From a virus (taxonomy: Duplodnaviria > Heunggongvirae > Uroviricota > Caudoviricetes), in the IMG/VR virus record IMGVR_UViG_2706794666_000005: a stretch of 5,055 nucleotides of DNA. One strand, written 5' to 3'. Both the position numbers and the translations under genes were made by a program. The notes below the pieces were generated by a model. It made no database searches. It was not told the DNA's origin and saw only the letters and a program-made list of their open reading frames with translations. Shown here one piece after another: positions 1,277 to 5,039 of this stretch (position 1 is its first letter; the number at the start of each line of letters is the position of its first letter).

Positions 1277-1294
1277 TAATTATTCTCACTTGTA

Positions 1295-1358
1295 GGGAGG
1301 GGCGGGGCAAATCCCTGTGACCTGACGTCTTCCGGACTGCCCGCCCCATCGTTTTTTT
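1295..1358. other. GC-rich dyad-symmetry element between HNH and terS; candidate cos region or terminator-like structure
   Basis: GGGGCGGG (1299-1306) is the inverted complement of CCCGCCCC (1340-1347), about 33 nt apart. Palindromes GACGTC (1324-1329) and TCCGGA (1331-1336) lie between the arms, and a T7 run follows at 1352-1358. The position matches where cos sits in HK97-like genomes. The function is inferred, not demonstrated. Confidence 0.3.
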
Positions 1359-1397
1359 ATACCCGCGAAAAATGAAATTTAACCAGGAGTGCCGCAT

Positions 1398-1892
1398 ATG
1401 GCTGGAACGGCGGGGCGTTCCGGGCGTCGCCCCAAGCCAACGGCGCGCAAGGCGCTGGCCGGAAACCCCGGCAAGCGAGCCCTGAACAAAGATGAACCTG
1501 TTTTTACGCCCATCAAAGGTGTTGAGCCACCAGAGTGGTTCGCTGAAGAAGATCTCCCTCTCGCCACGATCATGTGGCAACTGACAACCAAAGAACTCTG
1601 CGGTCAGGGCCTGCTGTGCGTGACTGACCTGGCGGTACTTGAGCGGTGGTGCGTGGCCTATGAGTTCTGGCGACGTGCCGTGAAAAATATTGCCATACAG
1701 GGCAACACCATCACCGGTGCAATGGGCGGCAGGGTCAAAAATCCGGAGCTGACCGCCAAAAAAGAACAGGAGTCCGAGATGAGCAGCACGGGGGCAATGC
1801 TCGGACTCGACCCCAGCAGCCGCCAGCGTCTGATTGGCCTGGCGGGGCAGAAGAAAGCCACTAACCCGTTTCTGAAAATTATCGAATCATGA
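1398..1892 (+). CDS. Terminase small subunit, P27 family
   Basis: 164 aa from ATG 1398, with AGGAG at 1384-1388 nine nt upstream. The basic N-terminus with the GNPGKR motif ([28 protein letters not shown]) is typical of P27-family TerS. The stop overlaps the terL start as ATGA (1889-1892). I reject the ORF-track GTG 1389 because it has no spacer from the SD. Confidence 0.88.
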
Positions 1893-3622
1893 GCCGGAAA
1901 TCTTACCCCAACGTAAATGCTGCAAATCAGTATGCCCGGGATGTCGTGCGCGGAAAGATTGTTGCCTGCCAGTTTGTGATTCAGGCCTGCCAGCGCCATC
2001 TTGATGACCTGATGGCGGAAAAAAGTAAGTCGTTTCGTTACCGCTTCGACAAGGACCTGGCTGAACGGGCCGCGAAATTTATTCAGCTGTTGCCGCACAC
2101 CAAGGGGGAGTGGGCATTCAAACGGATGCCCATCACGCTGGAGCCGTGGCAGCTATTTGTGATCTGCTGTGCGTTTGGCTGGGTCAATAAAGGCACCCGG
2201 TTGCGCCGCTTCCGGGAGGTGTACACCGAAATCCCCCGTAAGAACGGCAAATCAGCAATCTCTGCCGGTGTTGCCCTGTATTGTTTTGCCTGTGATAACG
2301 AGTTTGGCGCGGAAGTGTATTCCGGTGCCACGACAGAGAAACAGGCGTGGGAAGTCTTTCGCCCGGCGCGACTGATGTGTAAACGCACACCCATGCTGAC
2401 GGAAGCGTTCGGGATTGAGGTTAACGCCTCAAACATGAACCGTCCGGAGGATGGCGCGCGGTTTGAACCGCTGATCGGCAACCCAGGTGATGGTTCATCA
2501 CCCCACTGTGCCGTGGTTGATGAATATCACGAGCATGCCACCGATGCGCTTTATACCACAATGCTTACCGGGATGGGGGCGCGACGTCAGCCACTGATGT
2601 GGGCCATCACCACCGCCGGGTACAACATTGAGGGGCCGTGCTACGACAAGCGGCGGGAAGTCATCGAGATGCTCAACGGCTCGGTGCCTAACGATGAACT
2701 GTTCGGGATCATCTATACCGTTGATGAAGGTGACGACTGGACCGGCCCGCAGGTGCTGGAAAAAGCCAATCCAAATATTGGCGTGTCGGTTTATCGCGAA
2801 TTTTTGTTAAGTCAGCAGCAGCGTGCGAAAAATAACGCCCGTCTGGCAAACGTCTTTAAAACAAAACACCTCAATATCTGGGTGTCGGCGCGTTCGGCGT
2901 ATTTCAACTTGGTGAGCTGGCAGAGCTGCGAGGATAAATCACTGACCCTTGAGCAGTTCGAGGGGCAGCCGTGCATTCTGGCCTTTGACCTGGCGCGTAA
3001 GCTGGATATGAACAGCATGGCGCGACTTTATACCCGCGAGATTGACGGTAAAACGCATTACTACAGTGTGGCCCCGCGTTTCTGGGTACCGTATGACACG
3101 GTGTACAGCGTCGAGAAAAATGAAGATCGACGGACAGCCGAACGCTTTCAGAAATGGGTGGAAATGGGCGTTCTGACCGTTACCGATGGTGCGGAGGTGG
3201 ATTATCGCTACATCCTCGAGGAGGCCAAAGCGGCGAACAAAATCAGCCCGGTCAGTGAGTCACCCATCGACCCCTTCGGGGCGACCGGGTTGTCACATGA
3301 CCTTGCTGATGAAGACCTGAATCCCGTCACTATCGTCCAGAACTTCACCAATATGTCCGATCCGATGAAAGAGCTGGAAGCAGCGATTGAATCGGGACGT
3401 TTTCATCATGACGGCAATCCCATCATGACCTGGTGTATCGGCAACGTGGTCGGCAAAAACATGCCGGGTAACGATGATGTGGTGAAACCCGTCAAAGAGC
3501 AGGCGGAAAACAAAATCGATGGTGCAGTTGCGCTGATTATGGCGGTTGGCAGAGCCATGCTGTACGAGAAAGAAGACACGCTGTCTGACCACATTGAGTC
3601 CTACGGGATCCGCTCGCTTTAA
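1889..3622 (+). CDS. Terminase large subunit (ATPase/nuclease)
   Basis: 577 aa. Walker A-like IPRKNGKS at nt 2231-2254, Walker B-like CAVVDEYHE, and a C-terminal nuclease-like region with conserved acidic residues ([24 protein letters not shown]). Size and position fit a Terminase_1-type TerL. Translationally coupled to terS. Confidence 0.92.
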
Positions 3623-3633
3623 CTGAGGTAATT

Positions 3634-3816
3634 ATGATCATGCTGATTCTCGCGCCTCTGGTGGGCGTGCTGGGTGCGCTTTTGCTGGCGTATGGTGCCT
3701 GGCTGATTTATCCCCCGGCGGGTTTTGTTGTTGCCGGGGCGCTGTGCCTGTTCTGGTCGTGGCTGGTGGCGCGATATCTCGACCGTACACGGCAGTCTGT
3801 CGGCGGAGGTAAATAG
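3634..3816 (+). CDS. Small hypothetical membrane protein (two predicted transmembrane helices)
   Basis: 60 aa, [60 protein letters not shown]: two hydrophobic helices and a basic C-terminal tail. GAGGT at 3625-3629 lies 4 nt before ATG 3634. Codon usage is host-like (ctg, gcg, ggt, gtg). Its last codons carry the SD for the downstream portal start. Confidence 0.6.
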
Positions 3817-4972
3817 TGTTCTTTTCGGGATTATTTCAACGAAAAAGCGATGTGCCGGTGACCACGCCAGCAGAACTGCTGATGCTATCGGGCTGTCATA
3901 CGACACCTATACCGGAAAGCGGATCAGTAGCCAGCGGGCCATGCGCCTGACGGCGGTCTATTCTTGCGTCAGGGTGCTGGCAGAGTCTGTTGGTATGCTG
4001 CCCTGCAGTCTCTACAAAATCAGCGGTACCCTGAAAACACGGGCGGTGGATGAACGACTGCATAAGTTGGTTTCGGCAAAACCTAATGGCTACATGACAC
4101 CGCAGGAATTCTGGGAGCTGGTTATTGTCTGCCTGTGTCTACGGGGGAATTTTTACGCCTACAAGGTAAAGGCACTGGGAGAAGTGGTGGAGCTTCTTCC
4201 GATAGATCCGGGCTGTGTGGAACCGAAGCTGAACAGCCAGTGGCAGCCGGTTTATCAGGTGACGTTTCCGGATGGTTCCGTGGATGTGTTGACCCAGAAT
4301 GAAATCTGGCATGTGCGCACCCTGACGCTGGATGGACTTGTCGGGCTGAATCCCATTGCGTATGCGCGTGAGGCCATTTCACTGGCAGCGGCAACCGAGG
4401 AGCACGGTGCCAGGTTGTTTAGTAATGGTGCGGTGACATCCGGTGTGTTGCGTACGGAACAAAAGCTCACGCCGGATGCTTACGAGCGTCTGAAGAAAGA
4501 TTTTGAGGAGTGTCACACGGGGCTTGGCAATGCTCACCGCCCGATGATTCTGGAAATGGGGCTGGACTGGAAGTCGATGGCGCTGAACGCCGAGGACAGT
4601 CAGTTCCTGGAAACCCGCAAGTTTCAGCTGGAAGAAATCTGTCGTCTGTTCCGGGTGCCGTTGCACATGGTGCAGAACACCGATCGCGCCACCTTCAACA
4701 ATATCGAAGAGCTGGGGCTGGGATTTATCAACTATTCACTGGTGCCGTATCTGACCCGCATCGAACAGCGGATCAACACCGGACTGGTACGAAAAAGTAA
4801 GCAGGGCGTTTATTACGCCAAATTTAACGCCGGGGCGTTACTGCGCGGGGATATGAAGTCCCGTTTTGAAGCCTACGCCACCGGGATCAACTGGGGAATT
4901 TACTCTTCCAATGACTGCCGCGACCTGGAAGATATGAATCCGCGTCCCGGTGGTGTAATGCCGATCAGTTAA
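3816..4972 (+). CDS. Portal protein, HK97 family; start and body are in different frames as read (apparent 1-nt frame break near 3890-3893)
   Basis: The body (frame 2, to stop 4970-4972) has HK97-portal hallmarks: RLTAVYSCVRVLAESVGMLPCSLYK near the N-terminus and FLETRKFQLEEICRLFRVPLHMV. The best start signal is GTG 3816 in frame 0, with a perfect GGAGG (3805-3809) 6 nt upstream, overlapping the upstream stop as TAGTG. Frame 0 gives MFFSGLFQRKSDVPVTTPAELLMLSG... but hits TGA at 3948-3950. The span is not a multiple of 3. Confidence 0.8.
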
Positions 4973-5004: not shown

Positions 5005-5039
5005 AATCCGGAAACGCTCACTTGTTTCCGGATTTTTTT
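5005..5039 (+). terminator. Rho-independent terminator downstream of portal
   Basis: atccggaaac (5006-5015) pairs perfectly with gtttccggat (5024-5033), 8-nt loop gctcactt, followed by a T-run (5034-5039). The T-tract is present only in the + orientation. Confidence 0.7.

Follow-up and report, generated by a model that had tools for sequence, protein, structure and literature searches.

The window, by which we mean the whole 5,055-nt stretch of viral DNA that was analysed (IMG/VR record IMGVR_UViG_2706794666_000005), is a fragment of a phage late region that carries genes for lysozyme, Rz, an HNH endonuclease, the small and large terminase subunits (terS and terL), a 60-aa ORF and the portal protein. 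The HNH gene lies on the plus strand at 926–1276 (PF01844, E=1.6e-16) and closes with a TGA stop codon at 1274–1276. On the same strand, terS occupies 1398–1892, from an ATG at 1398, and encodes a P27-family small terminase (PF05119, E=3.7e-20; 48% identity to phiP27 L35), and terL follows at 1889–3622 with the ATPase and nuclease domains of a large terminase (PF03354 and PF20441). HNH proteins of this kind are accessory nucleases of HK97/P27-type terminases; the one encoded here matched HK97 gp74 with 34% identity over 70 aa (E=2e-10), while TerL matched HK97 gp2 with 26% identity (E=8e-31). Both the gene order (HNH, gap, terS, terL) and the pairing of an HK97-type TerL (PF03354 plus PF20441) with a gp74-homologous HNH partner are those of HK97/P27-type, HNH-associated cos sites.

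Between the HNH gene and terS lies a 121-bp intergenic gap (1277–1397), which an earlier note on this DNA had proposed as a candidate cos site, and the features described there were all found in place. An inverted repeat, GGGGCGGG at 1299–1306 and CCCGCCCC at 1340–1347, has arms of 8 nt that are 100% complementary and 33 nt apart; two short palindromes, GACGTC (1324–1329) and TCCGGA (1331–1336), are present; and a T7 run (1352–1358) and an A-rich stretch (approximately 1366–1381) both precede the terS Shine-Dalgarno sequence (AGGAG, 1385–1389). When the gap was dinucleotide-shuffled 2000 times, perfect inverted repeats of at least 8 nt with a loop of 3–60 nt occurred in 139 cases (7%), and a GC-only repeat of the same size in only one, a criterion that was picked after the data had been seen; six distinct inverted repeats of the size of the dyad occur across the whole window. 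Taken alone, the dyad is only marginal evidence against chance, and it is because of homology and conservation, not because of the dyad, that the element can be regarded as more than a chance occurrence.

The genes around this core are in decay. The lysozyme gene (93–422) is truncated, with only positions 47–125 of the Pfam model matched, and is followed by Rz (419–883); bases 1–420 matched E. coli holin-lysozyme regions as three separate pieces spread over approximately 780 bp, indicating deletions in the lysis region. Downstream of terL, a hydrophobic 60-aa ORF (3634–3816) with no Pfam match precedes a frameshifted and truncated portal pseudogene (3816–4972), in which the loss of 1 nt near 3878, by comparison with two homologues (CTG-CTGATG versus CTGGCGGATG), shifts the reading frame. 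Since homology to relatives stops at 4955, the element lacks the C-terminal part of the portal gene and every head and tail gene beyond it. No exact match to the junction at which the portal gene is cut short was found in GTDB representative genomes. The whole window was found in none of the complete E. coli genomes, where the best matches covered 92% of it at 93% identity. Overall, the prophage is decayed and defective, and of the SfV/P27 type.

Two further features of the window were observed. Strong hairpins followed by T-runs lie at both of its ends, at 4–30 (AGGCCATCAG...CTGATGGCCT plus T6) and at 5005–5034 (AATCCGGAAAC...GTTTCCGGATT plus T7), the right-hand one being beyond 4955, where homology to relatives stops. 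In another frame within Rz lies a second 60-aa ORF (639–821), which resembles an Rz1 o-spanin gene and has both a lipoprotein-like start (LVVVGC) and a stretch rich in proline.

Identification of the cohesive end

The virion termini of phage SfI have been sequenced directly by run-off sequencing, in which 10 nt (5'-TGCCCGCCCC-3') were missing by comparison with the prophage and were taken as the cos site (PMC3636060), and an identical cos is common to SfI, SfII, SfIV and SfV (PMC3851460). Exactly this 10-mer is present on the plus strand of the window at 1338–1347, where it comprises the right arm of the dyad plus TG; the SfI record itself terminates in ...ACTGCCCGCCCC and starts with GTCGTTTTTTT. 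The annotated 'cos-site' of phiP27 (AJ298298, 21806–21815), which reads CGCCCGCCCC, also aligns to 1338–1347.

Comparison with phage genomes and their termini by BLASTN, the check that the earlier note had recommended, placed the gap among the cos sites of SfI/SfV-type phages and phiP27. Megablast of 900–1900 against phage records returned SfI, SfII, SfIV and SfV with 97–98% identity over terS, and phiP27 with 94% identity over the HNH gene, the annotated 'cos-site' lying under the match. With a sensitive blastn search of the gap only, 1354–1389 matched positions 7–42 of Edwardsiella phage EPP-1 and 1354–1382 matched positions 7–35 of Burkholderia phage phi644-2, so that an offset of +7 from the left end is common to two unrelated linear records. 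When the ends were set side by side, the four linear record ends of SfI, HK97, phi644-2 and EPP-1, together with the phiP27 cos-site, converged at 1347|1348. The choice of record end by depositors is not uniform, as the SfV and SfIV records begin at 1331, not 1348, and those of SfII and ST64B at other arbitrary points.

Because the 10 nt were missing from both run-off reads, and by analogy with the 10-nt 3' overhang of HK97 (PMC11331095, PMC9410871), we infer that the overhangs are 3', the top strand being nicked at 1347|1348 and the bottom strand at 1337|1338. The cohesive end thus delimited corresponds to the right arm of the dyad only (1338–1347), not to the whole dyad.

On the strength of these comparisons, the gap very probably contains the cos site of a temperate phage of the SfV/SfI/P27 type, with HK97-like packaging by an HNH-assisted terminase. 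It is the published mapping in near-identical phages, together with the aligned record termini, that bears out the assignment made in the earlier note. The cos site here reproduces the published SfI/SfV/P27 site almost exactly and is in that sense already known and ordinary. Since the portal gene is broken, the site is probably a relic at this locus, which a related helper terminase could nonetheless recognise.

Three conserved boxes in homologous sites

When one genome per species was scanned for CCGCGAAAAATRAAATTTAA (window 1363–1382), 55 stretches were returned, seven of which were chance matches lacking the other boxes. The remaining sites, with the window and Vibrio phage H20 added, gave 48 distinct sequences that could be aligned almost free of gaps. 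They come from gamma- and betaproteobacteria, the genera including Citrobacter, Serratia, Xenorhabdus, Photorhabdus, Edwardsiella, Lonsdalea, Vibrio, Burkholderia, Paraburkholderia, Comamonas, Acidovorax and Shigella, and in all 48 sites the 20-mer at 1363–1382 recurs in the same layout, with a G-box, a C-box and a T-run at fixed spacing.

Information content per column was computed over the 48 sites for the parts outside the search pattern. The left flank (1286–1294) carried 0.16 bits per column and was followed on the plus strand by the G-box GGGAGGGGCGGGGCAAATCCCTG (1295–1317; 1.28 bits per column), the upstream cos box that holds the left arm of the dyad (1299–1306); by a variable spacer (1318–1333; 0.46 bits per column) that holds GACGTC and the first half of TCCGGA; and by the C-box GGACTGCCCGCCCC (1334–1347; 1.21 bits per column), which holds the right arm (1340–1347) and the overhang. 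Within the C-box, C1337 and G1339 do not vary at all, and the conservation of A1336 is 90% or more. The two palindromes are not conserved and are missing from most homologues. The T-run region (1352–1360) reached 1.46 bits per column, and the T-run plus ACCCGCGAAAAATGAAATTTAA, spanning 1352–1382, form the third box. This plus-strand segment is the downstream half of the cos site, composed of the T7 run (+5 to +11) and ATACCCGCGAAAAATGAAATTTAA (+12 to +35), and is a putative TerS-binding site; the element at +12 to +35 tracks with the type of TerS among the homologues. As all three boxes keep their sequence and their distances from one another, the T7 run and the A-rich stretch belong to the cos site and, by analogy with HK97, probably constitute its TerS-binding half rather than the tail of a terminator.

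In approximately 36 loci an HNH gene (35–91% identity) lies upstream of the site and a TerS gene (48–99% identity) 45–118 nt downstream, followed by TerL. Given these ranges of protein identity, the DNA boxes are far better kept than the proteins encoded around them.

Complete cos-like sites (G-box, C-box, T-run and 20-mer) were also observed away from recognisable terminase genes, in L106 (approximately 6295–6398), L139 (approximately 5076–5179), L112, L122, L153, L118, L128, L137 and L149, and in Vibrio phage H20 (L098, 633–736); tblastn searches of these loci found no HNH, TerS or TerL. In L106 and L139 a gene for a 196-aa PRiA4_ORF3-like protein (PF07929) lies approximately 330 nt downstream of the cos-like site, and in L106 a 999-aa tape-measure-like ORF lies upstream of it. 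Such sites could be the cos of satellites, or could belong to phages with divergent terminases.

Modularity of the upstream and downstream halves

The 80 IMG/VR loci that carry close homologues of the HNH gene include many E. coli 'class C' prophages, in which HNH is 90% identical and the upstream half is kept through ...ACCGCCGCCTGA, the G-box included. Their downstream sequence is entirely different, and TerS is only 24% identical. From the pattern in the class C prophages and in HK97, the downstream half appears to go with TerS and the upstream half with HNH and TerL. Just past the HNH stop codon in L010–L089 (IMG/VR), near-identical HNH genes and G-boxes were seen joined to at least three kinds of downstream half and terS. 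Such a mosaic joint inside the cos site is suggestive of recombination in or close to the region of the cohesive end.

We would propose, as a tentative idea only, that the G-box GGGGAGGGGCGGGTCAAATCYCTG (approximately −53 to −31) is a conserved cos subsite that travels with the HNH/TerL module independently of TerS, from HK97 to the P27-like phages of gamma- and betaproteobacteria, where it might serve for docking of HNH/TerL for second-strand nicking or for cosQ-like termination; the terminase-less cos-like sites might then be those of elements that borrow these terminases.

Terminator and symmetric-site readings of the dyad

The earlier note had also allowed that the element might act, instead of or besides cos, as a transcription terminator or attenuator. 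On this reading the GC dyad and T7 run would form a Rho-independent terminator or attenuator that keeps transcripts of the lysis and HNH genes from continuing into terS and terL. Folding of the window RNA does give a GC-rich hairpin (−27 kcal/mol) that ends 4 nt before the U7, and a canonical 9-bp stem (GCCCCAAGG/CCTTGGGGC) stands immediately before the T7 in the homologues from Xenorhabdus. However, the window fold is unexceptional (z = −1.5; 15 of 200 shuffles fold as well), and its stem of 8 bp has a loop of 33 nt and a 4-nt spacer before the T-run. A consensus terminator scan made no call in the gap, and an Rfam search of 1100–1600 at E≤1 returned no match. Over the 48 homologues, moreover, the dyad arms pair in 72.9% of cells as against 75.5% in shuffled data, so there is no covariation and no upkeep of the stem by compensatory changes, and RNAalifold found zero consensus pairs. 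The T-run is kept even in homologues that lack a preceding hairpin, and as a matter of general knowledge of lambdoid late operons, the downstream head genes need transcription across the site on circular or concatemeric DNA. With no covariation, no consensus structure, an unexceptional fold and no match in the terminator scan or Rfam, a conserved terminator or attenuator is without comparative support and is unlikely, although a terminator-like fold may locally overlap the cos site.

A separate observation concerns the Xenorhabdus prophages (L108, L138, L141, L148 and others; alignment A2, columns 41–75), in which the predicted overhang region lies inside a perfect 9-bp hairpin, GCCCCAAGG-N8-CCTTGGGGC, with T7 immediately after it. 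This hairpin with its T7 has the canonical shape of an intrinsic terminator overlapping the predicted cos.

That a dimeric protein instead binds the inverted repeat, as a symmetric site or as a cruciform, with the dyad axis as the functional centre, is very improbable despite the rarity of so perfect a GC-only repeat in the shuffled gaps. The centres of the dyad (approximately 1323) and of the mapped overhang (approximately 1342) are 20 nt apart, the arms vary independently of each other among the homologues, and HK97 and EPP-1 keep the G-rich and C-rich boxes without any complementarity between them. Of the proposal that the dyad itself marks the cos, then, the placing of the right arm within the cohesive end stands, but the pair of arms is neither conserved nor covarying, and the dyad itself is not under selection. 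A functionless GC-rich repeat arising by chance in a spacer, for which the frequency of such repeats in shuffles might speak, can be set aside almost entirely, as the boxes are held at fixed spacing in 48 loci while TerS has diverged to 48% and HNH to 35% identity, and as a mapped cohesive end has exactly this 10-mer.

Proposed packaging mechanism

With the cos reading preferred, a tentative packaging scheme can be drawn from the literature on SfI and HK97. The HK97 small terminase binds +15 to +29, where it reads a C:G pair at +21 beside an A-tract, and the HNH protein gp74 stimulates cos cleavage by TerL (PMC11331095, PMC9410871). In the window, a GC block at +15 to +20 stands directly against A5 at +21 to +25, and it is from this likeness to the HK97 TerS site that binding of TerS at 1359–1382 is proposed. 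On concatemeric DNA, TerS would bind the downstream half (approximately +12 to +35) where the GC block abuts the A-tract, and TerL, aided by the HNH protein, would cut the top strand at 1347|1348 and the bottom strand at 1337|1338, these staggered nicks leaving 10-nt 3' overhangs of TGCCCGCCCC. Packaging would then proceed rightward, through terS and then terL. The G-box (1295–1317) would be left at the last-packaged end, where, more speculatively, it might be recognised by HNH/TerL or take part in a cosQ-like termination.

These results leave the current understanding of cos packaging unchanged. They do fix the annotation of the locus, with the cohesive end at 1338–1347, the T-run and A-rich stretch as part of the cos site, and the prophage as a decayed SfV/P27-type element, and they are useful for calling prophage boundaries and for predicting the type of packaging (cos, not pac). 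The three-box layout across genera offers a simple sequence signature for P27-family cos sites and brings out the G-box as a candidate subsite.

Comparison with known cos systems

Phage lambda has 12-nt 5' overhangs, a Nu1/gpA terminase and IHF sites, and no HNH partner. Its cos site (cosQ-cosN-cosB) follows the same three-part logic as that of the window, with an upstream box, a nicking site and a region for the small terminase beside the gene for that subunit, but without sequence similarity. A lambda-type cos was considered for the gap and rejected, given a TerS of PF05119, a TerL of PF03354/PF20441, a 10-nt end and a dyad centre that lies off the nick sites.

HK97 is closer, in that its HNH and TerL proteins have homologues encoded in the window. 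It shares with the window a G-run and a following TCAAATC exactly 41 nt from the right end, the overhang region is CCGCC-rich, and a GC block lies beside an A/T-tract near +21 in a similar manner. However, the HK97 TerS has no sequence relation to the TerS of the window, the downstream half differs as well, and the HNH gene is approximately 320 bp from cos, compared with approximately 60 bp in the window. The likeness of the upstream halves extends to 26 of 56 positions, which 17 of 20000 shuffles reach and which is only just the best register; this similarity would be a modest lead to homology and no proof of it.

In the Stx2e phage phiP27, cos likewise lies between an HNH-type gene (L34) and terS (L35). 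The G-box is near-identical, the overhang reads CGCCCGCCCC and the downstream sequence TTTTTACACCCGCGAAA resembles that of the window, whereas the spacer has another sequence, the T-run is cut to T5 and the TerS proteins share only 48% identity.

The closest counterparts are the Shigella flexneri serotype-converting phages SfI, SfII, SfIV and SfV. The window differs from these active phages in that its cos site sits in a defective prophage, in having GGGGCGGGGC in place of their GGGGCGGGTC, and in carrying another HNH allele, one that closely resembles the phiP27 gene. The order of HNH, cos, terS and terL is nevertheless the same, terS and terL are approximately 98% identical at the DNA level, and the whole gap is 90–100% identical, with an identical TGCCCGCCCC.
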